From IMG/VR virus record IMGVR_UViG_3300008108_000206, positions 1 through 59,526 of that record: 59,526 nucleotides of DNA. One strand, 5' to 3'. A model generated the notes under the pieces. The model was not told where the DNA came from and ran no database searches. It worked only from the letters and a program-made list of their open reading frames with translations. The stretch's first letter is position 1, and every line of letters begins with the position of its first letter. The DNA is from a virus (taxonomy: Duplodnaviria; Caudoviricetes). Of this stretch, positions 16,278-59,386 are shown one piece after another. Made by a program: the position numbers and the translations under genes.

Positions 16278-16316
16278 AACATTTCAGATAATTACTAATA
16301 CTCAAAAATCACAGAT

Positions 16317-16660: not shown

Positions 16661-16668
16661 AAGTCGCC

Positions 16669-16881: not shown

Positions 16882-17014
16882 GAGGATTGAGAGATTAGAG
16901 GCGTCCCTCTACAATCTCAGATTAATGTACAGACCTCCAGAAAGGGAGGAGCATGTAAGTATAACTGAATACTTAGATGAAGTAGAGAATAGGATAAAAA
17001 ATTTAGAAAATTAA
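16853..17014 (+). CDS. small coiled-coil protein
   Basis: AAGGAG upstream; MNQDLNSLIERIERLE...LMYRPP...YLDEVENRIKNLEN. Confidence 0.65.
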   Translation: MNQDLNSLIERIERLEASLYNLRLMYRPPEREEHVSITEYLDEVENRIKNLEN

Positions 17015-17019
17015 GAGTT

Positions 17020-17400: not shown

Positions 17401-17421
17401 TTGGTTGGGGTGTGGTATAAT
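17393..17421 (+). promoter_or_regulatory. sigma70-type promoter
   Basis: TTGCGT, 17-bp spacer, TATAAT with extended TG. Confidence 0.65.
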
Positions 17422-17447
17422 AGGTGGGTAATCAACCGAGAGGTCTT

Positions 17448-17588
17448 ATGGCAAAGCGTCCTTCGCTGACTGGCAATCAAATCGAATCCAAGCCCAAGAA
17501 AACCCGTCAGGGTATGGGAGCACATACGAAGTATGCCGCTACGAGTCGTAACGGTGCTCGTAAGCGTTATCGTGGTCAAGGTCGATGA
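17448..17588 (+). CDS. 46-aa very basic cyanophage-type peptide
   Basis: MAKRPSLTGNQIESKPKKTRQGMGAHTKYAATSRNGARKRYRGQGR; GAGG SD. Confidence 0.8.
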   Translation: MAKRPSLTGNQIESKPKKTRQGMGAHTKYAATSRNGARKRYRGQGR

Positions 17589-17595
17589 ATATTTT

Positions 17596-17620
17596 GCGAT
17601 CCTTCGGGGTCGCTTTTTTT
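17596..17620 (+). terminator. intrinsic terminator with cUUCGg loop
   Basis: GCGATCC-TTCG-GGGTCGC followed by T7. Confidence 0.9.
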
Positions 17621-17707
17621 ATGTGTGTAAATAGTTTTGAGTGTGTCTCTGAAGGCAGGGATAGCAACCCCTTAAAAAGTTCTGTTCAACCTATATGGAG
17701 AAAACAG

Positions 17708-17884
17708 ATGGCTAATGTTGATAAAAGTAGAGAGTTTGTCCAATCGGGGATGACTCTGATATCAGAACAGGCGAGTGATCGCCTGTTAAAAAAGGTGAAA
17801 TACCAAATTCCAGAAAATCGATATAGTAGACCGTGTGGTGGTGCTGGTGGATTTGATGATTTTGTTGAGAGGTGGCATGAGTGA
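17708..17884 (+). CDS. cyanophage-type hypothetical protein
   Basis: GGAG SD; MANVDKSREFVQSGMTLISE...GFDDFVERWHE. Confidence 0.75.
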   Translation: MANVDKSREFVQSGMTLISEQASDRLLKKVKYQIPENRYSRPCGGAGGFDDFVERWHE

Positions 17885-17885
17885 C

Positions 17886-17893
17886 TATAAATA
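17886..17893 (+). promoter_or_regulatory. T4-type late promoter
   Basis: Exact TATAAATA before gp25. Confidence 0.85.
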
Positions 17894-17915
17894 ATAACAA
17901 ACGTTTTTGTCTACT

Positions 17916-18308
17916 GTGCCACAGTTTCAAACATTTAAAGATTTAAATGTTACATTCAAGCCACATCCTGTAACTGGTGATTTAATTGTCAGTAAGGATG
18001 TGGCTGCTGTCAAACAGGCTATTATTAATCTTTTGTTAACCAACAAAGGTGAGCGTTTATTTAATTCTCAGATTGGATCAAATATTTCTAGATTATTATT
18101 TGAACAATTAGATTATGGCGTAGCAGCACTGGTTCAATCTGAGATTAAAAATGTATTAAATGACTATGAACCAAGAATTAATATTCTATCGTTAGAGGTT
18201 ATACCAAATTTTGATGATAATGGATTTGATGTTGGAATGGAATTTGAGATTATAGGTAGAGACGATATTCCACTCAACGTAGAATTCTTTTTAGAGAGAA
18301 CTCGATAA
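17916..18308 (+). CDS. gp25: baseplate wedge subunit gp25
   Basis: FKDLNVTFKPHPVTGD...AIINLLLTNKGERLFN..IGS...YEPRI; likely GTG start at 17916. Confidence 0.93.
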   Translation: MPQFQTFKDLNVTFKPHPVTGDLIVSKDVAAVKQAIINLLLTNKGERLFNSQIGSNISRLLFEQLDYGVAALVQSEIKNVLNDYEPRINILSLEVIPNFDDNGFDVGMEFEIIGRDDIPLNVEFFLERTR

Positions 18309-34800: not shown

Positions 34801-37800
34801 ATCAGTTTCTATTAATAATCCATCAACAGATTCTACTGGGATAACAACAGGTTCTGCTGTTATTACATTACCAGACAATTATTTTGGATCTGGATTAACT
34901 AATTATCCAAAATTAAAATTAACTGCAACTGTAGAAATTGATAAAGCAAAACCAAGATTAAAAACTTCAATTACGAATAAACGAATTGTAGTTACTTCAA
35001 GTGGTGATAGAATTATTCCTCTTCGTGGTACTGATTATGATGGAGAAAATATTGAAGTATATTCATATTCAGATGCTTATAAATTACGATATGTTTATGA
35101 AGGCACTTCTACTACTCCACCAGATGTTGATGCAAGTGGTCAATTAATTAGTGGTTCTGATGTATCATATAAATTTACTTTTGATAATGGACAAAGAGAT
35201 ACTTTATATGATGTGTCAAGAATTGTATTGAAACCAGGATTTGATGCCCCAATAGGACAACTAGTTATTGCATTTGATTATTTTGAACATTCTCAAGGTG
35301 ATTTTTGTACAGTAGATTCATATTTACATGAAGCTGGAGTATCAGCAGATGAGATTCCTTCATTCAATTCTGCTTTACATGGTATTGTTTCACTAAAAGA
35401 TGTCATCGATTTTAGACCAAAAGTAGATTCAAATACAACAATTACTGGATTCCAAGATATTTCTATTTTAGCAAATCCAGAAGGAAAAAGTTATATTAAC
35501 TTCGTTGGTGATGGTGGAGTAGTATCTGCAACGCCAGCATCAGATAATAATTTAGAATATACAGTTTCATTTAGTGAAACTCAATATCTAGATCGTATTG
35601 ATGGCATTTTCTTAAACAAAAAAGGAGAATTTGTAGTAAAGTCTGGTAATTCTTCTATTAATCCATCAAAACCAGATATTATAGATGATGCTATTGCAAT
35701 TTGCTACTTACATATTCCTTCATTTACAACTAATAGCAAGGATGTAAGAATTGTTCCAGTTGATAATCGTAGATATACGATGAGAGATATTGGTAAGTTG
35801 GAAAAAAGAATTGAACGTTTAGAATATTATACCACACTCAGTATTCTTGAGCAACAAGCTCTTAATATGCAAGTTAAAGATGAAATTGGTTTGGATAGAT
35901 TTAAAAGTGGTTTTATTGTAGATAATTTTGAATCTCATGGTATTGGCAATATTAAGTCTTCTGATTATAGATGCTCTATTGATACTCAGCAATCGGTATT
36001 GCGTCCACAAGCAAAAGAAAATAGTTTTAATTTAATTGAAATTAATACAAGAGACGATCAACGTTCTATTTCAGGATATAAAAAATCCGAAAATATTATA
36101 ACATTACCATACACATCAGTTAAAGTTCTTGGTAATGAATTTGCTACCAAAACAATTAATCCAAATCCATTTGTTGTTATTCAATATGTTGGTGATTGTA
36201 ATATCGCACCAATAATTGATCAATGGTATGACACAACTATTGCCCCATTAGCAGTAAATAATAATACAAATCACTTTACTATTTTCCAAGCAAAAGATGA
36301 TGTAAAAGAATCCTTATCGAGCATTTACAATTCTTTTGTTATAAATTGGGTAGGAACAAATGCTGCATTTTTAAATATTAATTCTTTTGCATCTGTAGCA
36401 AGTGAAACAGTCAACTCTTCGATTCAACAAGCATCAATTGCAAGTTCTTCGAATGTAAATCCACAAAATAATGAAATCGGAAAAGGAATTAATTCAAAGA
36501 CAGTAAATAATAATAGTGTTTCTTCATCACTACAATTTTTTGCTAGATCAATTCCTATTAAGTTTAAAGTACAAAGATTAAAAGCAAACACTAATCTCAA
36601 TGTTTATGTTGATGGTAGAAATATTAATAGATGGATAGTTCCAGATACAATTTTTACTGGTATTGCAGGAAATTCTTTATCAACATTTAATTCTTCTTTA
36701 TCTACAGATGAAAATGGTAATTTAAGTGGAGTAATTTTATTCCCTTCTGGTTATCCTCCGATTGAAAATTCTAGATGGACAGGAGATGTTAACACAGTTT
36801 CATATGATGAAGGATCTGAAGAAATAAGATTTGCTTCTGGAGAAAAAACAATTACTTTCTCATCATCTACAGATTATTCCGAAAAATTAACTGCAGATAC
36901 TTATGCAGAAATTAAGTTTTATTCTTCTGGTATTATTCCAGAAAATCCACCATCAATTATTTCAACTTCAGTTGCATATTTTAAAGCAAATGAAGGAGTA
37001 CAATTAGTTAATAGTAATACAGATCAAGAATCAAAACCAAATCCATTAGCACAAACATTTAAAATTGAGAATTTTGCAGGTGGTTTATTTACCACTGGTG
37101 TTGATTTATTCTTCAATAAAAAAGATGATTCTGTTCCAATTAGAGTATATCTATCTAATATTGATACAGGAAAACCTGGAAAGTTTATAGTTCCAGGTTC
37201 AGAATCTGTAATGTATCCAGAAACTTATTTAAAAGTTTATCTCACTGGAGATTCTGATACTATTTCTATTAGAAAAGGAGAATTTATAAAAGGTAAGAAT
37301 TCAAATGCTACTGGTCCAGTTTTAAAAGTTTATGATAAAAATAATATTTTAGTTGGAGATGAGAATTCTACTCAATTCCAATTAAATAAAGAACAGGTTT
37401 ATACTTTAGTTTTAAGTAATCACAATGGATCTACGTTCCTTCAAAATGAACCACTAGAAATTCCTTCTGTTACTGAATTCAATAACACTAGAAATAAAAA
37501 TGCAATTTTATTAATTGCAAAAGATTCTGGTAAAGTTATTGACTTGAAAGTTATGAATGTTGGTGATAATTATGAAAGTGCAACTATTACTATAGAAAGT
37601 CCACAACTTCCAGGAGGAAGTACTGCAACAGGAACTGTTAGTGTTTCTGATTTTAAAATTTATAATGCAGAAATTTCACTTAATGGACGTGGTTACACAG
37701 AAGCTCCATCAGTTGTCATCAAAGGAATTGGAAGTGGTGCAGGAGAAGCAATAATAGAATCTGTTATTGAAATTGATACTCCAGCTGTAAGAATGGGAAT

Positions 37801-39787
37801 TGCTACAGATGAATACAGTGAAACCAAATCTATTATTCCGACCAGATTTAATTTTAAATATCCTGTATATTTACAAAATAATGCACAATATGCACTCACA
37901 ATTGAAACTGATTCCATCAACTATGAAATCTGGGCTTCTCGTTTAGGAGAAACTGAAATTGCAACTAGCACTACAGTAAATTCTCAACCTTTACTTGGCT
38001 CTGTGTATAAGTCACAAAATACAGATAATTGGACGGAAGATTTATTTGAAGATATTAAGTTTACTTTATATAGAGCTGAATTTAATATTTCTAGACCAGC
38101 AGAAATTTTACTATCTAATAGTAAATTAGGATATGAATTATTAGATTCAAATCCATTCGAAACTAGTGTTAGATCTTCTACTAATGCTACATCAGATTTA
38201 TTTAAAAATAATAATTCTATTGTTAAGGTAAATCATCGAGATAATGGTTTTGAAGATTCTGGAAAATCTTATGTGTTCTTTAGAAATGCAGAGACAGTTG
38301 GAGGTATTTCTTCAACATCATTAAATTCTTTATTATTTGAAGTTAAAAATTCTGGATTAGATTTTTATAATATTATTTCTCCTAATAGAGCTGGATCAAG
38401 TGTTGTTGGTGGAGGCAAAAAAGTATTAGCTTCTTATAATAGAAAATATGAAAGACTATATGCTCAAATTTCTTACTTACAATTAGAGGGAACTACAATT
38501 GATACTTTTGTAAAAACTACAAATATTACTCCTGTAGATTCATCCTCAACAAATTTCCCATCATATACACAAACTGACTACGAAAGAACTTTCTTAAATC
38601 AAGAACATTTCTTTACAAATCAAAAATTAGTTGCATCCAGAATTAATGAAACATTAAATTCGATTGATAGATCATTAACTTACAAAATTAATCTTTCCTC
38701 TTCGGTATCATATCTATCACCAGTAATTGATTTAAATACTTGTTCGGTTAAAATGTCAACAAATAGAATTGAGAATGCGTCTGGATATGAAAATAGATTT
38801 GGAAAGAGATACCAAGTTCTCAAATTCTTCCCATTATATAACTTAGGATTAATTGTAGTTGGTTCCGATGATGATTTAGTTACTGGAACAGTTTTAACTG
38901 GGCAGACAAGTAAAGCAATTGGAACCATTTTAAATTATAACAATAATATTGCTTTAATTACACTCAATACTTCGGTTGCATTTGAAAATAATGAGCAAAT
39001 TATTGCTACAACTCCAGCAGGAGTAAGAATAACATCAGTAAATTTAAGTGTTTCTTCTTCCGTAGAGCAAATTTATACATTTGCAGAAAATGCAGATTTA
39101 ATTGCATATTATCCACAAAATATTAATGTTGATTATGGAAATATAATTAATGGTAAGATTATTTCTTGGGATTCCAAAGACAAAGAAATAATAGTAGAAA
39201 ATAGTTATCTTCCTATTAATGGAAATTATGTAAGCGAAATAACTAAAGATAGTGCTTTTGTTAGAAAAGAAACTGAACAATCTCAAGATATTTTTAGAGT
39301 TGGTGATATAGTTAAAACTGGTGATAATAGATATGTAGAAGTTGCTGCTATGAATTTTACAACTGGAATTGATTTTACTCCAGAATCAAGCTCTAAAAAT
39401 AGTTCTTCTTTGGCAAAATATGTTTCTAAAGAAGTTACAATTAATAGTCCAGGAACTTCAATTGATGTTAGAATTACTGCCAATTTAAAAGATAGAGAAA
39501 ATGTAAAGATTCTTTATAGAATTAAAGAAGCATCACTTCAATCAAATTTCGAAGATATTAATTGGAAATATTTTAATATTGATGGATCTCCTGATAATGA
39601 CGATTTAGCTACAGCAGAGAATTCAATTTCTGCTATTGTAGAAAAACAATCATCATATCAAGAGTTTAAATATAGTGCTGCGGATCTTCCAGAGTTCACT
39701 TCATTTGCTATTAAAATTGTAATGAAGACAGATGATCCTGCTTATGCTCCAAAAATTCAAGATGTTCGTGCAGTTGCTTCATTCTGA
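31855..39787 (+). CDS. VrlC-like (DUF4815-type) large virion structural protein; 5' end frameshifted at ~31920
   Basis: Canonical start MPQKTNLNVSPYFDDFD at 31855 is out of frame with the 2631-aa body (EEGIYFVNGYFV, APGAHRL, LARRTFDESGDY, RRYTMRDIGKLEKRIERLEYYT, PLAQTF). Confidence 0.8.
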
Positions 39788-39984
39788 TGAATTATTTACC
39801 AGTTGACGGTCATCCAAATTTAGTTAGAGATGTTAGTACTGGGGCGATCATAAGTAAAGATCGCCCAACAAAAAGATTAACATCAGAATTTAATGTAATG
39901 CGTGATGACATAAATACTTTGAAGGAAGAAATATCTGAAATCAAACAGCTTCTTAGAGAGATAGTAAGAAATGGCAGTTCTTAG
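39787..39984 (+). CDS. small T4-like cyanophage protein
   Basis: VDGHPNLVRDVSTGAII...LKEEISEIKQLL. Confidence 0.85.
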   Translation: MNYLPVDGHPNLVRDVSTGAIISKDRPTKRLTSEFNVMRDDINTLKEEISEIKQLLREIVRNGSS

Positions 39985-42900
39985 ATCCGTTGCTAAAACA
40001 GACACCTTTGAAAAACAACGTCAAATTATAAATCAAATTGCATCTGATGTTTATAGTGTTCAGACTTCAGTAGGGGAAGGAGCATTTAGCATGAGTGATG
40101 GTTCTGTGCAAGAACCAGCATTGTATTTTACAAATGCAACTGATGTTGGAATTTTTAGAGGTAGTGCAAAATCTTTATACATTGCTTCGGAAGGAAAATC
40201 TGTTGCTAGTTTTGATGCAAATAATTTAACAGCATTACAAAATTTTAAAACTTTAATCTCATCTGTTCCAAATGGAACATCTGGAATTACTTTAGCTAAT
40301 GGAGGATCAGAATATAGTTCTGGTGTATTCAGTTCTATTCCTTTAATAGGAGGTTCTGGATCGGGAATAAAAGCAAATTTAACTGTAACTGCTATTGAAG
40401 GAGATATTGTAGATGGAGGTGGTGGATATGTTGGAGGATCATATGTAAGTGTTCCTATGATTGGCGGATCTGGAACTGGAGCTACCGCCGATATTACAGT
40501 TTCTCCTTTTAGTGGCAGTATTCAAAATGGAGGAACTGGAGGAGATATTGGATCCAACAATTCTCAAATTTTCACTAATGTTTCTTTAACTGGTGGATCT
40601 GGCTCTGGCATGAGAGCAGATATTACACTTACAAATACTGGAGCAAACGTATCTGTTACTGGGGTAACAGTTGTAAATCAAGGTTCTGGTTATCAAACTG
40701 GAGATGTTTTATCTGCCATTTCAAATACTATTGCTGGAGTTACTAACTTTCAATATGTAATTAATGGTGTTGGAAATGTAAGCCAAATTCAAATACTTTT
40801 ATCTGATGGTGGTTATGTAATTGGTGATATACTTACAGTAAATAATTCTAGTTTAGGTGGATCTGGTTCTGGACTTCAGTTTGAAGTAACTGGTGTTGGT
40901 ATTGTTACGGATGCAGCTATAGTAAATGGGGGAGATGGATATTTAATTGGAGATCAATTAACAGTTAATCCAGTTGAACTAGCTCCATCTGAAACTTGGT
41001 ATGTAAGAATGTGGAGAACTCAATTATTTGAGTTTTCGGGAACATTGCCAACTACTGGTTTTAATATTGGAAATACATTAACTTATGCTGGAGAAAATAG
41101 AATAATTGTAAATAGATTTTTAAATGCTCAAAATCAAATAACAGCAGTTGCTGTTAGAGCTGGAGCTGAAGATGGTAATACTATACAATTTTCTCCTGGA
41201 TTATCTGCTTCCGATGGTAATGGAAATACTGGCTTAGTTATATCTTCAGTTTCAGCTCTAAATTATTATTTTTCTTTAAATCAAGCTGGACCATATGAAA
41301 ATATAAGAAATTTTACTTTCCAAAAAAATAAAAGATATATTTTCAACCAAGCAAACTCATCAAATAATACTCACCCTATTAGATTCAGCACAACTCCAGA
41401 TGGTATTCACACTTTATTAAGTGGTCAAGGTGCTCAAGCAGATTTTGGAGATCCTTATGATGGAGATGAAGTAAATTATCAGTATACTTCAGTGGATGTA
41501 TCTATCATCCCAAATGATAATACACCAACCACTTTATATTATTATTGTAGTAATGGTTTTGGAAATCCAATAAATGAACATATTAATGAAGGTGGTTTTG
41601 ATGGAAAAGAAGGAAGCATAACTATAAGTGGGGAAGCTACTGTAGCTGGAGGTAATTTATCAATTACCGTTGCTCAAGTAGATACAGAATCAAATATTAT
41701 TCTCAACAAAGATGGTACTGCTACCCTTGGTACAACTACAGCTTCTTCTTTGACGCTAACTGGAAATATTGCAATTGGTGGTGCAGAAACTCTTTCTGGA
41801 AATTTAACAATAGGATCAAACAAATTTACTGTAGATTCTTTAAATGGAGATACCTTTATCGCAGGATCTCTTACAGTTGATGCAGATCTAGCATTTTTAG
41901 CAGATGCAGAACTTGGATCAACTTTATATATCGATTCCACAAATAATAGAGTATCTGTAAATGTTGATCCAGATATAACACCACTAACAAAATCATTTGA
42001 AGTTCTTGGTGATGCAAAAATTTCCGATAATGTTATTTTGGCTTCTTCGGTACAATCTACTTTAAAAGTTGGTAATAGCAATATTTTATCACAAGGATCT
42101 AGGTTACAAGTAGATGGCAATATTTATTCCAATTCAAAATATTATGCAGAAGCTGATGGAGATGTAACAAAGCCAGTTTATACTTTTGATAGTTTAGAAA
42201 GAGTAGGATTATCTGCAGATCCAACTAGAAATTCTTTATCAGTGACTACAACTACTGGAGAATGTTTAACAGTAGAGCCACAAGTAGTAAACTTTTTACG
42301 AAATGCAGATTTTAATAAATTAGAAGTTTTAACATCTTCTATTATTCCAGGTGAAGGTTATGAAATAGGATCATATTCTGGAGTAGAATTTGTAGGAGGA
42401 ACTGGTTCTGGATTTTTTGGAGATGTAATTGTAGCTTTTGTTGGTAATATATCTAATGTAGGAAGTGGTTATGTTGATGGAGAATATATTGCTAATTTCA
42501 GTGGTGGTTCTGGACTTGGAGCATCTTTATCTTTCACAGTGGTTGATAATGAAGTAGAAAATATTGTTGTGACAAACGGTGGCACTGGATATTTAGTTGG
42601 TGATATTTTAACAATAAATCCAAATACTATTACTAATAATCAAAATCAATTAGTTACATTTACTCCAACTGATGATGCTGAATACACAATAACGTTTTTA
42701 GGGGCAGTAACAGTTGTTAATCCAAATATTTCAGGAGAAGGATATATATCTGGAGATGAATTAACATTTAAATCTAATAGTGATCTTTTTGTAAATCAAT
42801 CTCTGCCATCAAATTATTTTCCGTGGTTACCAGAACAATCTGTTTTAATTGGAGATTTATTATATTATCAAAACAAATTATATGAAGTTACTCTTTCTGG

Positions 42901-44287
42901 AGATACTGCGGAAACTCAATTTCCACCTTCACATATTACTGGAACTCAATTAAATGGAACTAGTGAATTAACATTTGTTAAATATATTAAATTTTCATAT
43001 ATTATTGATACAACAGATACTCTTACTACAGTATCAATTAATAAAGATGATGGGGATGTTTTATCGGAATCTATTACCACAAATTTAATCACTGTAGGAA
43101 ATCAATTATCAATTAATGCTAACCAAATTTCTTCCACACAAAACCAAGATATTGTTATTACTCCAGGAGCAGCATCAAAGTTACTATCAATAGCTGGATC
43201 AGGTGGAGTTAAAGTTCCTGTAGGTAATTCGACAAATAGACCATCTGCATCTACTTTAGGAATTATTAGATATAATTCTCAAACTCAACAATATGAAGGA
43301 TCTAATGGTTCTAACTTTATTTCTCTTGGTGGCGTTAGAGATGTTGATGGAAATACTTATATTATTGCAGAAGAAGAAACTGGAGCTAATGATAATATTT
43401 TATACTTCTTTAATGATGCAGATAATTCTGCAAGATTAAATCGTAATGAGTTGGAGTTGGTAACTGCAACTACTATATCTTCCAAAGATACTGATGGCAA
43501 ATTTAAATGGAAAGAAAATACATCGTATTTACTTAATGCTTTTATTTACTATGATACTAATTTATATCAAGTAACTACAGCAGGAACTACTGGTTCAAAT
43601 GCTCCTACCCACACAGTAGGAATAGAACCTAATGGTACAGCTCAATTAACATATGTCAGTAATACATATGGAGATTTAATATTAAAAGCAAATAATATCA
43701 CATTTGATGGGCAGTTAACTTTAGGTGGTTCTTTACAATTATATACATTAAATAATGCATTAATATTAGAAAATACTTCCGACGCTTTTAAATTTGCTTT
43801 TGGAGACAATACTGGCACACCAAATACATTTGCATCAATTACTGATTCTGGATCATTATTAATTAATAAAAATTACAATACTCTAAATCCAGAAAATAAT
43901 CTTACTGTTTTAGATTATAGCGGTAAATTTATAGAGCTTGAAGATATTAAAATATTAACATTTGATTTATCTTTAGTAAAAGGAGCTACAGAAACTGGAA
44001 ATATTACAGTTTATGATCCAGATTTATGTAAAGGAGCAAAAGTAATTATTGTTGCTGAAAATATTACTTCTGGTGATACTCATATTGTTGAATATAATAT
44101 AATTTCAAAAGGATCTGATATATATGTAAATGAATATGGTAATTTAGATACTGGACTTGAGCAATATCAAGTCGAATGGTTGCTTTCTCCTGGAGGAAAT
44201 ATTCAAGGTAATGTGTCATTATCTTCTGCATTAACAGCAAGTGATATGGTAATTATTACAGCATCAATTACTCAAATTAAGAAATAA
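39971..44287 (+). CDS. 1438-aa virion structural/fibre-like protein
   Basis: KTDTFEKQRQIIN N-terminus; G-rich GGSGSG repeats; cupredoxin-like and CBM-like modules; GIIRYNSQTQQYEG; upstream CATAAATA at 39909. Confidence 0.75.
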   Translation: MAVLRSVAKTDTFEKQRQIINQIASDVYSVQTSVGEGAFSMSDGSVQEPALYFTNATDVGIFRGSAKSLYIASEGKSVASFDANNLTALQNFKTLISSVPNGTSGITLANGGSEYSSGVFSSIPLIGGSGSGIKANLTVTAIEGDIVDGGGGYVGGSYVSVPMIGGSGTGATADITVSPFSGSIQNGGTGGDIGSNNSQIFTNVSLTGGSGSGMRADITLTNTGANVSVTGVTVVNQGSGYQTGDVLSAISNTIAGVTNFQYVINGVGNVSQIQILLSDGGYVIGDILTVNNSSLGGSGSGLQFEVTGVGIVTDAAIVNGGDGYLIGDQLTVNPVELAPSETWYVRMWRTQLFEFSGTLPTTGFNIGNTLTYAGENRIIVNRFLNAQNQITAVAVRAGAEDGNTIQFSPGLSASDGNGNTGLVISSVSALNYYFSLNQAGPYENIRNFTFQKNKRYIFNQANSSNNTHPIRFSTTPDGIHTLLSGQGAQADFGDPYDGDEVNYQYTSVDVSIIPNDNTPTTLYYYCSNGFGNPINEHINEGGFDGKEGSITISGEATVAGGNLSITVAQVDTESNIILNKDGTATLGTTTASSLTLTGNIAIGGAETLSGNLTIGSNKFTVDSLNGDTFIAGSLTVDADLAFLADAELGSTLYIDSTNNRVSVNVDPDITPLTKSFEVLGDAKISDNVILASSVQSTLKVGNSNILSQGSRLQVDGNIYSNSKYYAEADGDVTKPVYTFDSLERVGLSADPTRNSLSVTTTTGECLTVEPQVVNFLRNADFNKLEVLTSSIIPGEGYEIGSYSGVEFVGGTGSGFFGDVIVAFVGNISNVGSGYVDGEYIANFSGGSGLGASLSFTVVDNEVENIVVTNGGTGYLVGDILTINPNTITNNQNQLVTFTPTDDAEYTITFLGAVTVVNPNISGEGYISGDELTFKSNSDLFVNQSLPSNYFPWLPEQSVLIGDLLYYQNKLYEVTLSGDTAETQFPPSHITGTQLNGTSELTFVKYIKFSYIIDTTDTLTTVSINKDDGDVLSESITTNLITVGNQLSINANQISSTQNQDIVITPGAASKLLSIAGSGGVKVPVGNSTNRPSASTLGIIRYNSQTQQYEGSNGSNFISLGGVRDVDGNTYIIAEEETGANDNILYFFNDADNSARLNRNELELVTATTISSKDTDGKFKWKENTSYLLNAFIYYDTNLYQVTTAGTTGSNAPTHTVGIEPNGTAQLTYVSNTYGDLILKANNITFDGQLTLGGSLQLYTLNNALILENTSDAFKFAFGDNTGTPNTFASITDSGSLLINKNYNTLNPENNLTVLDYSGKFIELEDIKILTFDLSLVKGATETGNITVYDPDLCKGAKVIIVAENITSGDTHIVEYNIISKGSDIYVNEYGNLDTGLEQYQVEWLLSPGGNIQGNVSLSSALTASDMVIITASITQIKK

Positions 44288-44844: not shown

Positions 44845-47800
44845 ATGAGTTTAGAATTTAACGCTGATAAGCAAATAATTAAAGGTTCTAATCCGTCAAT
44901 TGTTGGTTCTAACGAATTTACAGTTAGATCTGGAACTGGTGCGAATGAAAAAGAAATTATTCGTGCAATTTTAGATTCATCAACTAATTTACCTAGAGTT
45001 GGTATTAATAGAACTGGAAGAAGAGTAGAAAGTATTTCGGTAAATGAAAACCAAGGTGGAACTGATTATACAATAAATCCTTCTGTTATTTTAAGTCCTC
45101 CAGATTTAGCAAATGGAGTTCAAGCATTAGCATCTGCAGTAGTTTCTAATGGATCTGTAGTTGCAATTATTGTTGATAATCCAGGTGATGGTTACACTTC
45201 AGCACCAACTGTTAGTATTACAGGTGGAGGAGGTTCTGGTGCAGCAGCAACTGCTGTATTAGATACAGTAGATTTTGAACTTGATATTAATGGTGCTATC
45301 AGAACATCTACATCTATCATTTCTGATACTGCCAGAATTCTAAATCTTGATATTGATAATTTTGTTACGCCAGATGCAAATTTCCGTGCTCCTAATTTAA
45401 AAACTTGGGCAAATAATAGTGGTATTCCTTGGGCACCTGGAGTATCTTTACAAAAAGATGATTATAGATATTTTGGACAAAATTTATATCAAGTAATAGA
45501 ATCTGGTATTACTGGAACAACTGGACCCAATCATTTAGATGGATTAAAATTAAATGGCACTGCTTTATTAAAGCATATTGGTTATAGAGTTAGTGATGCA
45601 AATGCACCATATTATAACGAAACTGGAAACTCTGGAGTATTTCCTAGATCGATTACTCCACTTCTAGGAGATAAATCTGATAAAATTGCTACCACTGAAT
45701 ATGTTCTTAACTTAGCAACTAATGACGTAGGTGGTCGTGTATATGTATCACAAGCAATTGGTAATGATGAAAACGATGGTAGATCTGCAGCTGCTCCAGT
45801 AAGAACAATTAAAAGAGCATGTCAAATTGCTTCTCAATCAAAAGGAGTCAAGGAAACTGTTGTAATTTCTGGTGGTGATTATGTAGAAGATAATCCAATT
45901 TCTATTCCAGCAGATTGTTCAATTGTCGGTGACAACTTACGTCTAGTAATTGTAAGACCAGCAAATCCAAAAAAACATATATTTAAATTTGGAGATAAAA
46001 ATTATGTAACTGGTGTTACCTTTAGAGATCAAATTGATTCTAATGGAGATCCAGTTGCTACATGGGATTATGCAATGGTCTTTGATGATAAGCAAAGAAT
46101 TTATTATGATCCAACAACTGGTGGAGATTTTGGAAGAGATTTTACAATTGGACATCAAATTTTTGGACCAGAAAAAATTAGAGTATCTTTTCAAACAAAT
46201 ACAGGATTAGATCAATTAGTATCTGGATTAACTGTAACAGGTGTTAATACTGGTGCAGTTGGTATTATTACTAATGTAACATTCAACGCAACAACTGGTC
46301 CGCAGGCTTACATTAACGGAACAGTGGATGTTGATATTCAAAGTGGTTCTTTTAATAATGGTGAAACATTTTCATATCAAATAGGAACTGCTCCAAATAT
46401 AGATACATATGAATTTGTATCCATCCAAATTAATTCAATTAGAGCAGAAGGAGAAGTTGTAGATGTAGGAACAGATTTAATTACAGCTCTTCCAATTACT
46501 AGAATTGATTTTTCGAAGCAAGGAACTGCAGAAGTAACAGAAGGTGGATTTGGTTATAATGGTTCTCCAGAAGATTTGGGTGGTATTATTTTATATACCA
46601 ATATTCTTTTGGGAAGACAAAATATTCATGACTTTAAAGAAGGTCAAGAAATTGAAATTTCTGGAATGCCAACATCTGCACCAAATTTGTCATTTTTAAA
46701 TGGCAAAACTAGGATTTACAAAATTTTAATTGATGCTGATGGTAGATCAAGAAGATTTGTAATTCCAAAAAAAGTAGATTTAACTGACGAAAATTATATT
46801 CCTCCATCAATAGCAAATGTAAAATCATATTCAAACTATATTACATTAAGTCTGTTAAACTCACCTAATAAATTTCCAATCGCATCTTCAATTTCGAGAA
46901 GATTTCAAGATGCATGTAATTTAATTCGCAATAATATTAATTTTATTGTCGATGAAACTTATTTACAAGTATTGAGTGAATTTAGCAATTTTACTCCACC
47001 AAATGTTTCTAAATGTCGTAGAGATATTGGTCATTTTTTAAATGCTATTATTCGTGATTTGGAATATGGTAGTAATTATAATATAGTTGAAGCAGCAAAA
47101 TACTATGTAGAGAATACTACACAAATTGGTTATGTAGATGGAGAAATTACAGAAACAGTAAGAGCATTTGATATTGCTAGAAGATTAGCAATTATTGCTA
47201 TGAGAAATTGGAGAACTGGAAATGGAACAATTTCTGATCCAATTTATACAGCAGCATATTCATCTTTACCGAAATTTTTTGATAATACAGTTATCACAAC
47301 AACTGCTGGATCTCCAGCATGTGCAGATGTAGCAAGTGCTATTGATACATTAGGTTATCTTTTTACTACAATCATTACTAATAATACTACTGATAGATTC
47401 TTAGATGCTTCATATTTAATTGCTCGTAATGATGATTTCATTGCTTCGGAAGCTTTAGGTTATGCAAAAGCAACATATCCTTCACTAGGGCTTTCTGTTA
47501 ATGATGAAACCAAATGCAAGAGAGATATTAAATATATTCTCAATGCTTTAAGAAGAGATTTATCATTAGGAGGAAATGCTGGGATTGTTACAGCAGCTGA
47601 AGCATATTTTACAGGAACAGAATTAACAGGAATTCCAACTAGTGAACTATCAGCAACAAGATTTGCCTTCCAAAAAGCAAAAGATCTTGCTATTTTAGCA
47701 ATGAGAAATTGGAAAACAGGAGATGGTACTGGTCCTGTTTATACTAGATTATACGAAACTTCAATTGCTTTATTTACAGATAATACAATTGCTGTAGATC

Positions 47801-50800
47801 CATCAACCCCTATTTGTGCGAATGTAGCGTCAGCAATAACAACTTCATTTAGTTTACTTGATGACATATTAAATGGAGTAATTGCTGCTGGAGTAACAAC
47901 AAAAAGTTATGGAACTTTGTATGATCCAACTATTACATATCCAAATAACATAATTTATGATGCTGATAATAAAAAAGTAACCCCACGATTGGAATGGGAT
48001 GATCTTCCATATATCGAAGCATCGCCATACACACAAAACTCTTCAATTATTTCTTTCTTAGGTGGCGGTGGTGCTCTTATTGATGGAAGTAAAGTTGCAC
48101 AGCCAAACTGCCCATTCCCTGGATTAGAACCAGATGGTTCCGCAACTTATCCAAATCAGGGTAAGTCGATGGTTGCTTCGGCATTTACCATTGTATCTTT
48201 TGGTGGTACTGGTTATAAAGTTATCAATGATGGTTACACCCAGTTAGTTTCTGTTTTTGTTATTTTCTGTGCTGATGGAGTTTATGCAGAATCTGGCGGT
48301 TATGCTTCTATCACAAACTCAGCTACAAACTTTGGTATCTACGCTTTAAGAGCAAGGGGATATAATGATTTTGCGTATTCATTTGATATTGGTACTATTA
48401 CCAATGTATCAACAAACCCAGCTGGAAGAACTATTTTTACAATTGATGGTTTAGGAAGAGAACCACTTGAGCATTACATCGTAAAAATTGATGGATATAA
48501 AAATGTAGACCCAAATATAGAATATTTTATTGATACAGTATCTGGAGTAACCGTTGGTCCTCCTTTCTCTGCACAAATTATTTTAGAATCTGGTTCTGGT
48601 GGAGGTGCAGAATTTATTAATATTGAAACAGATCAGGCTGTTTCAACTTCAATTTCTGAATTTTCTGGCAAAACTATAAGATTACATAGACCATCTATTG
48701 TTAACTCTTCATCCCACACTTGGGAATTTGCAGGTTCTGGTACTAACTATAATGCATTACCAGAAAATGGAGGAGTTAAGATTGAAGCAAATGAACAGGT
48801 TCCTCAAGATTATGGTCGTGTATATGTTTCTGGTACAGATGAACTTGGTGACTTTAAAGTAGGTACATTTGCTAAAATTGAAAACAGAACTGGTGCAATT
48901 ACCTTCACTGGTACTGTCACAATTTCTGAAGTTGAGTTCCTTAAATTAAAAGGTGGAGATGTTGTTGTTACTGGTTTCGATGCTTCCAATACTCTTGGTG
49001 GAGCAAATTCAACTGACTCTAAACTACCAACACAAAAAGCGGTCAAGGATTATATTTCAAATAATCTTGGTCCATATATCAATAAACCATACTCCACTAA
49101 CGCTGTTCCTAGAGCACTTGTAGAACTTACAGATAGTGGCAAAATTTCTATTGATCAAATTCCTGCACTTAGACCATTTAATGTATATACAGTAGCAAAT
49201 CAATCAGAAAGGTTATCTATTGAAGGTGCTCTTGCGGGAGATATTGCTATTCAACAAGATACAAATATTTCATATATTTTAAACAATGATTTGTCAAGTT
49301 TATTTGTAACATTTGCAATAAACACAGATTTAGAATTTACATTAAATAATATATTTACTGGTTCTTTGTCTGGTGGTCAAATCCAGGCAACAGAATACAG
49401 AGAAGGTGTAGTATATAGAATTAATATTACAAATCCAGGTTCTGGATACACAGTTGCCCCAACTATTACAATTTCTGGAGGAAATCCAGATGTAGGATAT
49501 GTTCAGGCAACAGCAACCTGTACAATTGCTAATGGTCAGGTTGTAACCATAGAATTAACTGAATTTAATGGCTATATAGGTGGTAAAGGTTACACAACCC
49601 AGCCAACAGTAACATTCAGTGCTCCTGGGGGAGCTGGAATTACAGCTACAGGTTCTGCTTTAATTGAAAGTAGATTGTATGGTGATATTGTAAATAATAT
49701 TAAACTTACAGATACTGATACAATTCAATCCAGTAATTCCCCAGCAGAAACTATTAATATTAATAGAGTAGTAAATACTTCTTCTAGCGATGCTAATAAT
49801 TGGGTATCTCTTTCTACTAATCAAATTTCTGCATCTGATATTACATCTGGTGTTATTGATACAACTAGATTAGCGTTAAACTCAGCTGCTGCTAACTCAT
49901 TTACTTTCTTGAGGGGAGATAAATCATATGCTCCTGTTGTACAATCTGTAAAAGGTGCAGAAACAAGATATTTTGCAATCACAACACAACAATCTAACAC
50001 TGGTTCAAGTCAATTAGTATTTGCAACTAATTCAAATACATTAAAAGGTCATGATGTTGTTAGTAGTGTTAATGGTATTGCAGCAAACACAACAATTGCA
50101 AATGTCCTAACAATTAGTGGAACTACAACAGTAACATTAAATAATCCATTAACAGATATAATTACTGCAGGAACAGTAATTGAATTTAGAAGAGGTGCAT
50201 CTCCATTAGTATTTGAATCATCATATACACAGGGCAATTTTGTTGATAGTATTGTTATTGTTAATGGTGGCAGTGGATTTATCAGTGGACAATATTTTGA
50301 TATCCCATTGACTGGAGGATCTGGAACTGGATTAAAAGCTAATATAATTGTAACTGGTGGAGCAGTTAGTGAAATTTTAGTTACTAGCAGTGGAGTAAAT
50401 TATACTGGAGATTTTAATATTACTTCTGCTCCAACAGAAATTGGAACTGGATCTGGATTAGTATTAGCAGCAAAAATTTCTACTGTAAATAAACAGTATG
50501 CCAATACATCAATTGATATTAGCAGAGTTAGTGACCAAACAATTTCAGCAGATCCATACGGAACTGTTGGCGTATGTAGATTCCAAAAATCACAATTTAC
50601 TTTGGGTGCTGCTGGAAATGGTTCTGTTACGTTAAAGACAGGTCCAGATAGTGGATTAGATGCTGATTTATTAGATGGAGCACAAGGTTCATATTATCTA
50701 AATGCATCAAATTTAAATGCTGGAACAGTATCTGTAGATAGATTATCTGGTACATATAATATTAGTATCTCGGGTCAATCAGGTAATACTCTTCGTTTAA

Positions 50801-52854
50801 TTACATCAGTTAATAACCCAACATCTTCACCAACTCCTAATAATTTCTCGGCTGGTATTATCGCAGATACAAGAAATAATACAGCAGATGGTTTAAGTGA
50901 TGGTGGCTCAAGACATTTAGTACTAACAGCAAGAAACTTTGGTTCTGGTTTTGATGCTACTGGTGGTGGCGTAAGACAACTTGCATTCACTGATAATAAT
51001 AATATGTGGTTGCGTGGTTCTGGTTCCACATTAGATGAATTTGGAACATGGGCAAAAGTTTGGACTTCATTAAATGATGGTGATGGTAGTGGATTAGATG
51101 CAGATAGATTAGCAGGAAGAAGAGGAATTTGGTATCAAAATGCTTTCAATATTAATTATGGTACGCTAAGTGATAATAGATTACCATCCTACCAAACTGC
51201 AAAAACATTAAATAATTCATTAAAAATTAATACTACCACTAATAATCCAAGATATAAAATTTATATTTCAGGTTTATTATTAACTGCATCACCATTCCTT
51301 GCTGGATTGCCAGTAAACTTATATAATTCAAATTCGCAAGGTGTTGGAACAATTCTAATTACTAATGTAGAAACATTTAATGATACTAATGATGATGCAA
51401 ATGATTATACAATCATAACTGGTTCACTACAGACAGGTACATTTACTGGTGCTCTTACCATTGGTACTGCATCCGATAGAGTTGAATTTAAAGACTATAG
51501 TTTAGATATTTCTGGATCATTTGAAACTGCTGAATTGTTTAGTGATACTGGAACTGCTAAGTTAAGACTTGGTAGAAAAGATGGTAACGCATCAAGTCCT
51601 GGTATTTTCTTTAATAGTAGTTCTTCTGCTGCTACATTTAATGCATCGATTGTTGCTTCTGGTGGCACTTCAACAGAAGGTAGTGGAACTTTAAATATTA
51701 CAGTTGCTTCTGTAGATGGAGTAACTATTAATAATAATAAAATTTGGAATGCTGGTAACGTAACGTTTGCTACAAATAATGTTGTTAACACAGCAGTTCT
51801 TCGTGATGCTTCTGGTAACTTTGCTGCTGGTACAATTACTGCTAGTGTGACTGGTGCTGCTTCTCTAAACGTATTAAAAGCAGGCGATAGCATGTCTGGT
51901 GCTTTGAGTATTAATACTACTGGATCTACAGCAGATAGTAATTATGAATTACAATTATCTGGTTCTGCTGGTGGATGGGTTCAATTCCACAACAGATTAA
52001 GTGGAGGAGCATGGAATCCATTAGTATCAACAGATGATAAAGCAATTATATTTACCAATTCAACTGGAACAGAACCAGCAACTGCTAGTGGTAGATTTAT
52101 TATTGCTCCTTGGTCGAGCACAAGTGGTGGTTTGGTTGTTTGGAATAATGGTAATGTCGGCATCAAGAGAAATAATCCTTTAACGCCTCTTGATGTTGGT
52201 CCTTCAGCAGCTCCATTCCAATCTGTAGCAAGATTTGGAACTAATGGCAATGATATTATTTTAACTCATGCTTCCGCTATCATTTCTCACAACGCTTATT
52301 ATAATAATGGATGGATTACCACTGGAGCTGGTGGTGCTTGTTTAGTAGAGTTACAGGGAGGCAAATTCTTCTTCCAGACAACAAACACAACAGCATTAGC
52401 AGCAGGTGCTGCACCAGGATTTAATAAATATCCACTTTCACTTCATAATTCTGGTAGAGTTACTGTTAATACTCAAACTGAAAATACTTCATATGATTTA
52501 TATGTAAATGGTAGCTTTGGTGCTATTTCTAAGTCGTTCGTTATTCCTCACCCAACTAAACAAAATTATGAATTACGTTATGGTTCGTTGGAGGGACCAG
52601 AGCACGGCGTATATGTTCGTGGTAAGTCATCTGGCGTTATTGAGTTACCTGATTACTGGGTTGCTCTCGTTAATGAAAACACCATCACCGTTCAACTCAC
52701 CCCAATCGGCAATCACATGTCATGGGTTGAGAAGATTGAAGATAACAAAATCTTCATTGGTGGTGGTGAGGCATTCTATTTCGTCCAGGCAGAGCGTAAA
52801 GATATTGATAAATTAGAAGTTGAACTTGAGTTGCCTATTGAGGAGGAAGAGTGA
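44845..52854 (+). CDS. 2669-aa tail fibre-like protein (beta-helix, phycobiliprotein-like repeats, GLDAD repeats, C-terminal HP..LRYGSLEGPE domain)
   Basis: ACTAAATA late promoter at 44805; VYVSQAIGNDENDGRS..APVRTI; KIATTEYV; GLDADLLDG and GLDADRLAG; SKSFVIPHPTK...YGSLEGPEHGVYVRG. Confidence 0.8.
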   Translation: MSLEFNADKQIIKGSNPSIVGSNEFTVRSGTGANEKEIIRAILDSSTNLPRVGINRTGRRVESISVNENQGGTDYTINPSVILSPPDLANGVQALASAVVSNGSVVAIIVDNPGDGYTSAPTVSITGGGGSGAAATAVLDTVDFELDINGAIRTSTSIISDTARILNLDIDNFVTPDANFRAPNLKTWANNSGIPWAPGVSLQKDDYRYFGQNLYQVIESGITGTTGPNHLDGLKLNGTALLKHIGYRVSDANAPYYNETGNSGVFPRSITPLLGDKSDKIATTEYVLNLATNDVGGRVYVSQAIGNDENDGRSAAAPVRTIKRACQIASQSKGVKETVVISGGDYVEDNPISIPADCSIVGDNLRLVIVRPANPKKHIFKFGDKNYVTGVTFRDQIDSNGDPVATWDYAMVFDDKQRIYYDPTTGGDFGRDFTIGHQIFGPEKIRVSFQTNTGLDQLVSGLTVTGVNTGAVGIITNVTFNATTGPQAYINGTVDVDIQSGSFNNGETFSYQIGTAPNIDTYEFVSIQINSIRAEGEVVDVGTDLITALPITRIDFSKQGTAEVTEGGFGYNGSPEDLGGIILYTNILLGRQNIHDFKEGQEIEISGMPTSAPNLSFLNGKTRIYKILIDADGRSRRFVIPKKVDLTDENYIPPSIANVKSYSNYITLSLLNSPNKFPIASSISRRFQDACNLIRNNINFIVDETYLQVLSEFSNFTPPNVSKCRRDIGHFLNAIIRDLEYGSNYNIVEAAKYYVENTTQIGYVDGEITETVRAFDIARRLAIIAMRNWRTGNGTISDPIYTAAYSSLPKFFDNTVITTTAGSPACADVASAIDTLGYLFTTIITNNTTDRFLDASYLIARNDDFIASEALGYAKATYPSLGLSVNDETKCKRDIKYILNALRRDLSLGGNAGIVTAAEAYFTGTELTGIPTSELSATRFAFQKAKDLAILAMRNWKTGDGTGPVYTRLYETSIALFTDNTIAVDPSTPICANVASAITTSFSLLDDILNGVIAAGVTTKSYGTLYDPTITYPNNIIYDADNKKVTPRLEWDDLPYIEASPYTQNSSIISFLGGGGALIDGSKVAQPNCPFPGLEPDGSATYPNQGKSMVASAFTIVSFGGTGYKVINDGYTQLVSVFVIFCADGVYAESGGYASITNSATNFGIYALRARGYNDFAYSFDIGTITNVSTNPAGRTIFTIDGLGREPLEHYIVKIDGYKNVDPNIEYFIDTVSGVTVGPPFSAQIILESGSGGGAEFINIETDQAVSTSISEFSGKTIRLHRPSIVNSSSHTWEFAGSGTNYNALPENGGVKIEANEQVPQDYGRVYVSGTDELGDFKVGTFAKIENRTGAITFTGTVTISEVEFLKLKGGDVVVTGFDASNTLGGANSTDSKLPTQKAVKDYISNNLGPYINKPYSTNAVPRALVELTDSGKISIDQIPALRPFNVYTVANQSERLSIEGALAGDIAIQQDTNISYILNNDLSSLFVTFAINTDLEFTLNNIFTGSLSGGQIQATEYREGVVYRINITNPGSGYTVAPTITISGGNPDVGYVQATATCTIANGQVVTIELTEFNGYIGGKGYTTQPTVTFSAPGGAGITATGSALIESRLYGDIVNNIKLTDTDTIQSSNSPAETININRVVNTSSSDANNWVSLSTNQISASDITSGVIDTTRLALNSAAANSFTFLRGDKSYAPVVQSVKGAETRYFAITTQQSNTGSSQLVFATNSNTLKGHDVVSSVNGIAANTTIANVLTISGTTTVTLNNPLTDIITAGTVIEFRRGASPLVFESSYTQGNFVDSIVIVNGGSGFISGQYFDIPLTGGSGTGLKANIIVTGGAVSEILVTSSGVNYTGDFNITSAPTEIGTGSGLVLAAKISTVNKQYANTSIDISRVSDQTISADPYGTVGVCRFQKSQFTLGAAGNGSVTLKTGPDSGLDADLLDGAQGSYYLNASNLNAGTVSVDRLSGTYNISISGQSGNTLRLITSVNNPTSSPTPNNFSAGIIADTRNNTADGLSDGGSRHLVLTARNFGSGFDATGGGVRQLAFTDNNNMWLRGSGSTLDEFGTWAKVWTSLNDGDGSGLDADRLAGRRGIWYQNAFNINYGTLSDNRLPSYQTAKTLNNSLKINTTTNNPRYKIYISGLLLTASPFLAGLPVNLYNSNSQGVGTILITNVETFNDTNDDANDYTIITGSLQTGTFTGALTIGTASDRVEFKDYSLDISGSFETAELFSDTGTAKLRLGRKDGNASSPGIFFNSSSSAATFNASIVASGGTSTEGSGTLNITVASVDGVTINNNKIWNAGNVTFATNNVVNTAVLRDASGNFAAGTITASVTGAASLNVLKAGDSMSGALSINTTGSTADSNYELQLSGSAGGWVQFHNRLSGGAWNPLVSTDDKAIIFTNSTGTEPATASGRFIIAPWSSTSGGLVVWNNGNVGIKRNNPLTPLDVGPSAAPFQSVARFGTNGNDIILTHASAIISHNAYYNNGWITTGAGGACLVELQGGKFFFQTTNTTALAAGAAPGFNKYPLSLHNSGRVTVNTQTENTSYDLYVNGSFGAISKSFVIPHPTKQNYELRYGSLEGPEHGVYVRGKSSGVIELPDYWVALVNENTITVQLTPIGNHMSWVEKIEDNKIFIGGGEAFYFVQAERKDIDKLEVELELPIEEEE

Positions 52855-58651: not shown

Positions 58652-59386
58652 ATGAATAATAATTTTTGGGATTATTCGGTTGAACAATCAAAAACCGAAT
58701 TGAATGATATTCATCACATTTTTCCAACTACATTATTTGAAAGTACTATATCTATTTCAAATACTGAGGAAATATTGAAGGATTTAAATAAAAAATATTT
58801 ATTATCTGATGACTATGATATATCAAAATCTGTAGGTCCATATCTAAGAAATACAGAACAAAGTCTAGAAAAAAATAAAATATCTTTTTATACAGAAGAT
58901 ACTTTACACGAGAATGATATTTATTTTGAGTTAAAATGTCAAATAGAAATTATTGCACAAAAAATATTTGATGCATACTGTTATGAAAATATAACCCCAA
59001 GAGTAGAAACTATGTGGGGGAATGTTCTTGGTTATAATGGATATATTCATCCACATGCCCATAGTAATTCTATGTTCTCTGGAGTATGGTATCCAGAGGA
59101 TCCTCCTCAAGTATCAGAAGGATCTTTGTCAAATTATATAAAATTTATAGATCCAAATAGAATTAAATATTTTTTTATGCCTCAAGTGTCTCAAAAAAAT
59201 CATATTAATTCTGGAGAAATTTTTATTAAACCTAGAAAAGGTATGTGTTTAATTTTTCCATCTTGGTTAGAACATGATACTGTGCCAAACGAAAACCAAT
59301 CAGAAGTCAGATACAGTATAGCATTTAACTTATTCTTTAATGGTTCACTAGGATTTCCAAACTCGCTGAATAGATTAACAATATGA
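58652..59386 (+). CDS. 2OG-Fe(II) oxygenase (TIGR02466-like)
   Basis: WGN...HPHAHSNSMFSGVWY...FIDP...LIFPSWLEH.T.PN...RYSIAFN. Confidence 0.88.
   Translation: MNNNFWDYSVEQSKTELNDIHHIFPTTLFESTISISNTEEILKDLNKKYLLSDDYDISKSVGPYLRNTEQSLEKNKISFYTEDTLHENDIYFELKCQIEIIAQKIFDAYCYENITPRVETMWGNVLGYNGYIHPHAHSNSMFSGVWYPEDPPQVSEGSLSNYIKFIDPNRIKYFFMPQVSQKNHINSGEIFIKPRKGMCLIFPSWLEHDTVPNENQSEVRYSIAFNLFFNGSLGFPNSLNRLTI

Follow-up and report, generated by a model that had tools for sequence, protein, structure and literature searches.

Phycobiliprotein-like domains with a conserved Cys-x-Arg-Asp site in a giant tail fiber-type protein of cyanomyoviruses

Do the helical repeats in a giant tail fiber-type protein of a cyanophage descend from the phycobiliproteins of cyanobacteria, and do they still hold a bilin? 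The question is raised by IMG/VR virus record IMGVR_UViG_3300008108_000206 (positions 1 to 59,526, the whole of which was analyzed and is called the window below), a 59.5-kb fragment of a T4-like cyanomyovirus that is ~31% complete. The open reading frame (ORF) at 44845-52854 (+) encodes a protein of 2669 residues, here called P0001, which matches the PHROG family phrog_5342 ("tail fiber protein") along its entire length (E value, 0); its ortholog in S-RSM4, SRSM4_146, is also annotated as a tail fiber protein. According to an original prediction, made from the nucleotide sequence, P0001 contains two tandem phycobiliprotein-like domains with both bilin-site cysteines, and the virion is possibly pigmented or light responsive. 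The sequence strings quoted in that prediction are all present in the ORF at the claimed places (RFQDACNLIRNN begins at residue 686, nucleotide 46900; VYVSQAIGND and SPYTQNSS lie at residues 299 and 1060), and its numbering of Cys724, Cys826, Cys891, and Cys991 is correct in the translation. We show here that the domains descend from a cyanobacterial phycobiliprotein, closest in sequence to phycocyanin alpha, and that, with the X/Y helices and the residues of alpha-beta and disc assembly gone, they retain the bilin-holding Cys-x-Arg-Asp. What this retained site now does is weighed thereafter.

Homology of the repeats to phycobiliproteins

The two helical domains comprise 165 residues each (681-845 and 846-1010) and are 40% identical to one another over 161 residues (E value, 2e-33). 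In each, one Cys lies within a K-C-x-R-D motif and another where the last helix begins. Cys is rare outside the repeats, with a total of 12 in the entire protein.

Comparison of P0001 itself with known families gives faint scores. The phycobilisome protein family PF00502 scored 14.1 bits on the whole protein and 16.3 bits (E value, 0.0099) on repeat 1 alone, below the gathering cutoff of 22.2 bits, and phmmer aligned domain 2 with phycoerythrin alpha (PDB entries 7ap5 and 5aqd) at an E value of 0.23, over the K-C-x-R-D-I-K stretch. Scores of this kind speak for a chance resemblance, or for a convergent helical bundle with no phycobiliprotein homology. The relatives of P0001 argue against it. 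Residues 676 to 1010 retrieved 578 giant proteins (E ≤ 0.001) from a collection of 5.8 billion proteins, with a precomputed PF00502 match in 19 among the 120 matches listed, and rescanning placed 9/10 multicopy relatives above the gathering score (25.6 to 93.1 bits). We then used an alignment of 30 repeat copies (A1), consisting of the two from the window and copies from 9/11 IMG/VR loci. When its profile was run against all PDB sequences, the best 37 matches were all phycobiliproteins, headed by phycocyanin alpha (E value, 3.9e-5), and K-C-k-R-D-I-G-y of the profile fell on K-C84-A-R-D-I-G-Y of phycocyanin alpha. With a reference set of 12 CpcA and 12 CpcB sequences, taken from cpcA and cpcB loci found by a pattern scan, hhalign gave a probability of 95.8% (E value, 7.4e-9; 102 columns, beginning at template column 38); by subunit, the probability was 95.9% for CpcA versus 22.7% for CpcB. 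In the reverse direction, a search with A1 over all six frames of five whole cyanobacterial genomes returned the cpcA locus as the sole match in 5/5.

The predicted structure points the same way. The AlphaFold2 model of repeat 1 (predicted local distance difference test [pLDDT], 86.6; predicted template modeling score [pTM], 0.86) has six helices, contains the globin-like core (helices A, B, E, F, G, and H), and shows a 37-residue nonhelical stretch between the last two helices, which corresponds to the insertion of ~30 residues that had been noted from the sequence. The proposed check with AlphaFold and Foldseek bore out a globin-like fold with phycobiliproteins at the top: in a Foldseek search of the PDB, all of the matches listed were phycobiliproteins (TM scores, 0.56 to 0.70). 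VIA-align, run against 48,161 representative chains, likewise placed phycobiliproteins in all of the top eight positions, the best being phycoerythrin beta (5aqd_M; Z score, 16.4; root mean square deviation, 2.4 Å over 146 residues). The bilin domain of ApcE (4xxi_A) had a Z score of 14.6, full-length ApcE chains had scores of 12.6 to 13.0, and allophycocyanins had scores of 13.7 to 14.2; other globin-fold sensors were lower (9 to 11.6). Because the structural alignments begin at chain residue 29 to 47, the X/Y hairpin is absent, as had been proposed, and the start of the hhalign alignment agrees with this. As profile, hhalign, Foldseek, and VIA-align all concur, the likeness exceeds chance, in line with the original prediction. 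We regard the two repeats as almost certainly homologous to phycobiliproteins and give next to no credence to a chance resemblance.

The second bilin site is another matter. The likeness of Cys826 and Cys991 to beta-Cys153/155 is one of position only (where a long loop gives way to the last helix). The local hhalign alignment with CpcB (probability, 22.7%) ends before the distal Cys, which is left unaligned with beta-Cys153/155, and a global alignment is not credible.

Conservation of the site and architecture of the fiber protein

The Cys84-type Cys-x-Arg-Asp triad is almost invariant. A hidden Markov model (HMM) of the two repeats identified 793 copies (each ≥70 residues long) in 121 proteins (P0001 to P0121), with 2 to 22 copies per protein. 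Cys, Arg, and Asp are all kept in 750/793 copies (706/749 unique copies), even though the A1 copies from other loci are merely 25 to 35% identical to repeat 1. In the 16 copies in which Cys is replaced, Arg is replaced too (16/16). A second alignment (A3; residues 290 to 1189 in 24 orthologs) shows C724, R726, D727, C826, and C991 in 24/24 sequences and C891 and R893 in 23/24, with a gap in the remaining one. The distal column is present in 266 copies and holds Cys in 249 of these. In a wider scan of 1.84 billion representatives, 1,390 proteins matched at E ≤ 0.001. The columns of R93 and Y97, which are invariant in CpcA and CpcB and which we take to be alpha-beta and disc assembly residues, hold N/D and R/T, respectively, in the phage domain.

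Long-form proteins such as P0001 have exactly two Cys per domain, and a disulfide between them might be thought to account for their retention. P0005 has 22 domains and 27 Cys (22 in CxRD, 4 N terminal, and 1 extra), and P0099 has 15 domains and 19 Cys (15 in CxRD, 3 N terminal, and 1 between arrays); neither has a second Cys at the distal domain position. Since these short-form domains keep the CxRD Cys with no partner in the domain, an intradomain disulfide does not explain its conservation. The short-form subfamily (residues 749 to 4079 of P0005 and 753 to 2935 of P0099) consists of 15 to 22 domains of ~105 residues with a single Cys each, and blocks of 230 to 280 residues that have no HMM match follow each run of domains.

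The repeats had also been predicted to interrupt another domain of P0001, a putative beta-helix, and the adjoining segments of its relatives support the interruption. By blastp, residues 299-398 and 1056-1172 of P0001 match residues 112-228 and 242-355 of P0005 and P0099 (Table 1). The two flanks adjoin each other there; thus, residues ~400 to 1055 of P0001 are an insertion in another domain. This insertion comprises a 240-residue region of no assigned fold and the two repeats. The former (residues 440 to 680) is 41 to 57% identical in P0006 and P0056, is absent from P0005 and P0099 by blastp, and has no Pfam family match. At the same site, ~1,090 residues are found in p088 of S-PM2 (P0056) and ~2,000 in P0006, and the number of repeat copies ranges from 2 to about 10 across relatives. 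A search of PDB sequences with the A3 profile gave two weak matches to phycoerythrin alpha (E values, 0.035 and 0.07) and none for the flanks.

Table 1. Features of the P0001 gene (window positions) and loci in which cpeT precedes a second giant domain-bearing gene
Feature	Position	Strand	Basis
Giant tail fiber-type virion protein gene, P0001	44845..52854	+	phrog_5342, S-RSM4 ortholog
N-terminal part of interrupted domain, residues 299-398	45739..46038	+	blastp to P0005 residues 112-228
Inserted region ahead of repeats, residues 440-680	46162..46884	+	Conserved in P0006 and P0056
Phycobiliprotein-like domain 1, residues 681-845	46885..47379	+	HMM envelope, AlphaFold2, Foldseek, VIA-align, PF00502 (E value, 0.0099)
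K723-C724-R725-R726-D727, Cys84-type motif of domain 1	47011..47025	+	Aligned to CpcA K-C84-A-R86-D87
Cys826, distal Cys of domain 1, start of last helix	47320..47322	+	Sequence, model
Phycobiliprotein-like domain 2, residues 846-1010	47380..47874	+	HMM envelope, 40% identity to domain 1
K890-C891-K892-R893-D894, Cys84-type motif of domain 2	47512..47526	+	phmmer alignment
Cys991, distal Cys of domain 2	47815..47817	+	Kept in 24/24 orthologs
C-terminal part of interrupted domain, residues 1056-1172, resuming near SPYTQNSS	48010..48360	+	blastp to P0005 residues 242-355
cpeT and second giant gene, S-RSM4	L145:2122-17048		
cpeT and second giant gene, S-CAM4	L146:3515-16502		
cpeT and second giant gene, S-RIM44	L147:3743-17041		

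The P0001 gene lies downstream of homologs of gp25, gp6, gp7 (gp7-like), and gp8, the baseplate wedge genes of T4. Upstream of it, the baseplate and fiber cluster contains three more giant ORFs, at 20108-29866, 31892-39787, and 39971-44287 (3252, 2631 [TTG start], and 1438 residues). Analysis by phmmer revealed no phycobiliprotein-like domain in these three and, among the ORFs of the window, no repeat copy outside P0001. In BFVD and GenBank, proteins of this type bear generic names ("structural protein," "tail protein," and "hypothetical"), with no mention of the domain. As for the window at large, positions 1 to 18000 have a G+C content of 36 to 42%, few long ORFs, and numerous short, overlapping ones on either strand; the remainder (18001 to 59526), with the structural genes, has a G+C content of 27 to 35%. 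There are no tRNA genes in the window, and a 2OG-Fe(II) oxygenase-family gene is found at its end (58652-59386; phrog_81, E value of 6e-36).

Distribution of the domain and of bilin genes

Equal abundance of the repeat in phages of hosts that lack bilins had been named as evidence against a bilin-carrying fiber. When the two repeats were searched by tblastn against 50,697 phage records, 403 matched, and all of these are cyanophages (by name, 324 Synechococcus, 60 Cyanophage, 18 Prochlorococcus, and 1 Marine). As a control, gp6 retrieved 1,586 T4-like records, of which 459 have cyanophage names and >1,100 belong to phages of enterobacteria, vibrios, and others. The domain was found in 0 of the >1,100 noncyanophage T4-like records; it is thus confined to cyanophages within this set of phage records and is frequent among cyanomyoviruses. 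Such a restriction is consistent with acquisition from the host, although all cyanomyoviruses belong to a single clade.

The window contains none of CpeT, bilin reductase, and heme oxygenase, as the original prediction had stated; being a fragment, it says nothing in this respect about the whole phage. We therefore turned to 26 complete cyanomyovirus genomes, which were picked by hand and are not a random sample: 3 with published adsorption phenotypes, the 5 closest relatives of the window phage, 15 selected to span genera and to include domain-free genomes, and 3 from Sullivan et al. 2010. Both domain and CpeT occur in 18 of them (P-HM1, P-HM2, P-SSM4, P-SSM7, P-RSM4, S-RSM4, S-RIM32, S-CAM4, Sf-CH11, S-RIM44, Syn1, Syn9, Syn19, Syn33, S-SM1, S-SSM5, S-ShM2, and S-PM2), the domain without CpeT in 2 (ACG-2014f and S-SKS1), neither in 6 (P-SSM2, S-SRM01, S-H34, S-SSM7, S-SM2, and S-CRM01), and CpeT without the domain in none. 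CpeT is accordingly present in 18/20 genomes with the domain versus 0/6 without it (raw Fisher P = 1.2e-4); two of the positives, P-SSM7 and S-ShM2, reach the CpeT cutoff only when in-frame stretches are summed, and both have an annotated cpeT and a tblastn match. All five of the closest complete relatives of the window phage (5/5) encode CpeT.

In S-RSM4, S-CAM4, and S-RIM44, cpeT is located directly upstream, and on the same strand, of a second giant domain-bearing gene annotated as a tail protein or short tail fiber (Table 1), and the genes between the two are limited to tRNA genes, an HNH endonuclease gene, or a 2OG-Fe(II) oxygenase gene. The last, of the same family as the gene at the window end, is what separates cpeT from the giant tail protein gene in S-RIM44. 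In P-SSM4 and P-HM2, cpeT does not lie directly upstream of the giant domain-bearing gene. P-HM1 and P-HM2 have the domain, CpeT, heme oxygenase, and bilin reductase all together.

Function of the retained site and relation to known systems

The likeliest reason for the retention of the triad is that the domains still bind bilin, an explanation that we prefer with slightly more doubt than confidence. Each domain would bind a linear tetrapyrrole that the infected cell produces, attached through a thioether to Cys724 or Cys891, with the Arg and Asp holding its propionates and pyrrole nitrogens; a second bilin might be carried at Cys826 and Cys991. Attachment could be autocatalytic, as in ApcE, or could depend on host lyases of the S/U or E/F type or on the phage homolog of T-type lyases, CpeT. 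On this account, the fibers of a released virion would hold a few dozen chromophores. In the most speculative step, light absorbed by the bilins would shift the conformation of the fiber and gate adsorption; alternatively, the pigment might merely stabilize or protect the fiber.

The step to adsorption draws on the phenotypes of individual phages. Liu et al. 2019 (PMC6628666) report that adsorption of P-HM1 and P-HM2 fails in the dark, that P-SSM2 adsorbs in the dark but less than in the light, that darkness does not prevent adsorption of the podoviruses P-SSP7 and P-GSP1, and that the light-dependent adsorption of S-PM2 is independent of host photosynthesis. By these phenotypes, the domain is present in the phages that need light (P-HM1, P-HM2, and S-PM2) and absent in the dark adsorbers P-SSM2 and P-SSP7. 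That the virions of T4-like cyanophages are chromophorylated, with bilins linked covalently to the domains of fiber and baseplate proteins, at least partly by the phage CpeT, and that these bilins are the photoreceptor for the light-dependent adsorption of S-PM2, P-HM1, and P-HM2 seems to us rather unlikely.

A number of observations weigh against a bilin-carrying fiber, some of them against bilin binding and others against its proposed connections with phage lyases and light. We know of no report of colored or fluorescent cyanophage particles, and literature searches on cyanophages found none. Outside the triad, the domain has diverged at the positions that line the CpcA pocket; for example, W128 and Y129 of CpcA align to Leu and Ala. 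Four invariant residues of the domain itself, N697, D738, N744, and Y754, have no phycobiliprotein counterpart and may serve another function. A further relative, on a viral metagenome contig (L005, 2011-2487), has lost K-C-K-R of repeat 2 through a deletion of 5 residues and represents either a natural variant lacking the site or an assembly error. One protein in the scan of 1.84 billion representatives has as many as 35 copies, as would suit a building block with a purely structural role, and the nearest named clusters in the ESM Atlas are RsbRD_N, non-heme globin sensors, at a score of 0.89, which is below the trust level and serves as a lead only. The agreement between the domain and light-dependent adsorption, concordant as it is in all five phages compared, covers too few to weigh much. 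The bilin genes add to these difficulties. On a gp6 tree, where the window phage groups with S-CAM4, S-RSM4, S-PM2, S-RIM32, Sf-CH11, Syn1, and S-RIM44 with full support, CpeT changes twice and the domain four times, leaving 1 to 2 independent contrasts and a sign test that is powerless (P = 1). Because there are so few contrasts, the association of CpeT with the domain is compatible with a functional link and not separable from shared ancestry, and we rejected it as independent evidence. Bilin reductase (PF05996) is found in 7/23 genomes, 5/17 with the domain versus 2/6 without it (P = 1), and in 0/5 of the closest relatives of the window phage; heme oxygenase, found in 4/26 genomes, does not track the domain either. 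P-SSM2 and S-SSM7 encode heme oxygenase and bilin reductase and lack both CpeT and the domain; thus, bilin synthesis by phages needs another explanation, at least there. The co-occurrence with cpeT and pebS that had been proposed as a check consequently holds in part: in the 26 genomes CpeT occurs only alongside the domain, but this pattern cannot be told apart from ancestry, and the reductase is unassociated.

Many of the same observations would follow if the domain were a pigment-free structural module, which is a quite possible account, albeit a doubtful one. The gene would have been captured once, lost its chromophore, and been multiplied as a compact helical spacer governing how long and stiff a fiber or baseplate arm is, with Cys, Arg, and Asp kept for structural reasons, for instance interdomain or interchain disulfides that form once the virion is in oxic seawater or a buried salt bridge. 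Such a module would accommodate the variation in copy number (2 to 35 per protein) at a site that can expand, the loss of the assembly helices, the divergence of the pocket outside the triad, the invariant residues peculiar to the domain, and the natural deletion of the repeat 2 motif; globin folds that hold no cofactor, of the RsbR type, are also among its structural neighbors (Z scores, 9.8 to 11.6, in addition to the Atlas score). What a spacer does not readily account for is the choice of residues: those kept at 94 to 99%, at an overall identity of ~25 to 35%, are precisely the three that served the bilin in the ancestor, and Cys and Arg are lost together. Furthermore, the Cys of the short form has no partner inside the domain, and an unpaired, invariant, exposed Cys would be unusual in an extracellular structural protein. 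An improbable alternative is that the conserved cleft accommodates not a bilin but, for instance, a component of the host surface (as part of a receptor-binding apparatus), a metal, or a small ligand, with the Cys as a contact. P0001 is a protein of the tail fiber type, its insertion site holds repeat arrays that differ from phage to phage, a common trait of receptor-binding parts, and the extra invariant residues N697, D738, N744, and Y754 are polar. On the other hand, we know of no precedent for a phycobiliprotein fold that binds glycans or metals, and the cleft motif is highly conserved among phages of different hosts, which argues against host-specific recognition.

Bilin binding, whether or not it gates adsorption, bears on two questions that have been open for ~fifteen years: why marine cyanophages, including those whose hosts have no phycobilisomes, encode cpeT and sometimes also genes for bilin synthesis, and how light-dependent adsorption works independently of host photosynthesis. 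A fiber protein with a phycobiliprotein fold and bilin-holding residues is a concrete candidate for both. If virions are chromophorylated, they would be the first virus particles known to sense light, and phage cpeT would gain its missing substrate. If the domain is free of pigment, it would clearly exemplify the capture of a host photosynthesis protein and its amplification, to as many as 35 copies per protein, into a structural component of the virion. The full-text literature, searched for phycobiliprotein-like, PF00502, phycocyanin-like, or globin domains in cyanophage virions, yielded no description. In excerpts of Sullivan et al. 2010 (PMC3037559), the role of cpeT is unresolved and that of pcyA and pebS a mystery; excerpts of cyanomyovirus genomics reviews (PMC3037559 and PMC2984593) treat cpeT and the bilin genes solely as host directed, and those of PMC2984593 do not mention the domain.

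Compared with known systems, the phage domain is nearest to the subunits of phycobiliproteins (PF00502; CpcA/B, CpeA/B, and ApcA/B), with phycocyanin alpha as the best match in sequence and phycoerythrin beta as the best in structure. It shares with them the globin-like helical core, K-C-x-R-D on the equivalent of helix E, a Gly-Gly ~15 residues after this motif, and a second Cys that starts the last helix past a long loop. In contrast to them, it lacks the X/Y helices, has unconserved R93 and Y97 columns, and carries a 37-residue loop before the last helix, and it occurs in tandem inside a virion protein of 2669 residues rather than as a free subunit of 160 to 180 residues. Non-heme globin sensors (the N-terminal stressosome domain of RsbR and globin-coupled sensors) also have a globin-like fold without X/Y helices, but they show no profile similarity, no Cys-x-Arg-Asp, and lower structural scores than phycobiliproteins, and a Pfam scan of P0001 gave no match to RsbR_N (PF14361-like) at E ≤ 1. 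The bilin genes of cyanophages (ho1, pebS, pcyA, and cpeT) are found in the same viruses, but their enzymes have been treated as modifiers of host metabolism; CpeT is a homolog of T-type bilin lyases, for which the phage domains would be a virus-encoded acceptor. The bilin-binding (PB) domain of ApcE provides a further parallel, in that a phycobiliprotein fold with a loop insertion forms part of a large multidomain protein. Bilin attachment to ApcE needs no lyase, a precedent for autocatalysis, and involves a differently placed Cys. Unlike the phage protein, ApcE is cellular, has one such domain, and resides in the phycobilisome core; the phage repeats have no specific sequence match to it. 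The phage domain is not filed as a phycobiliprotein because the X/Y helices and assembly residues are missing and the chromophore is putative. From its sequence and predicted structure, it is best classed as a phycobiliprotein-fold domain of a new, probably virus-specific kind, whose nearest architectural counterpart appears to be the embedded bilin domain of ApcE.

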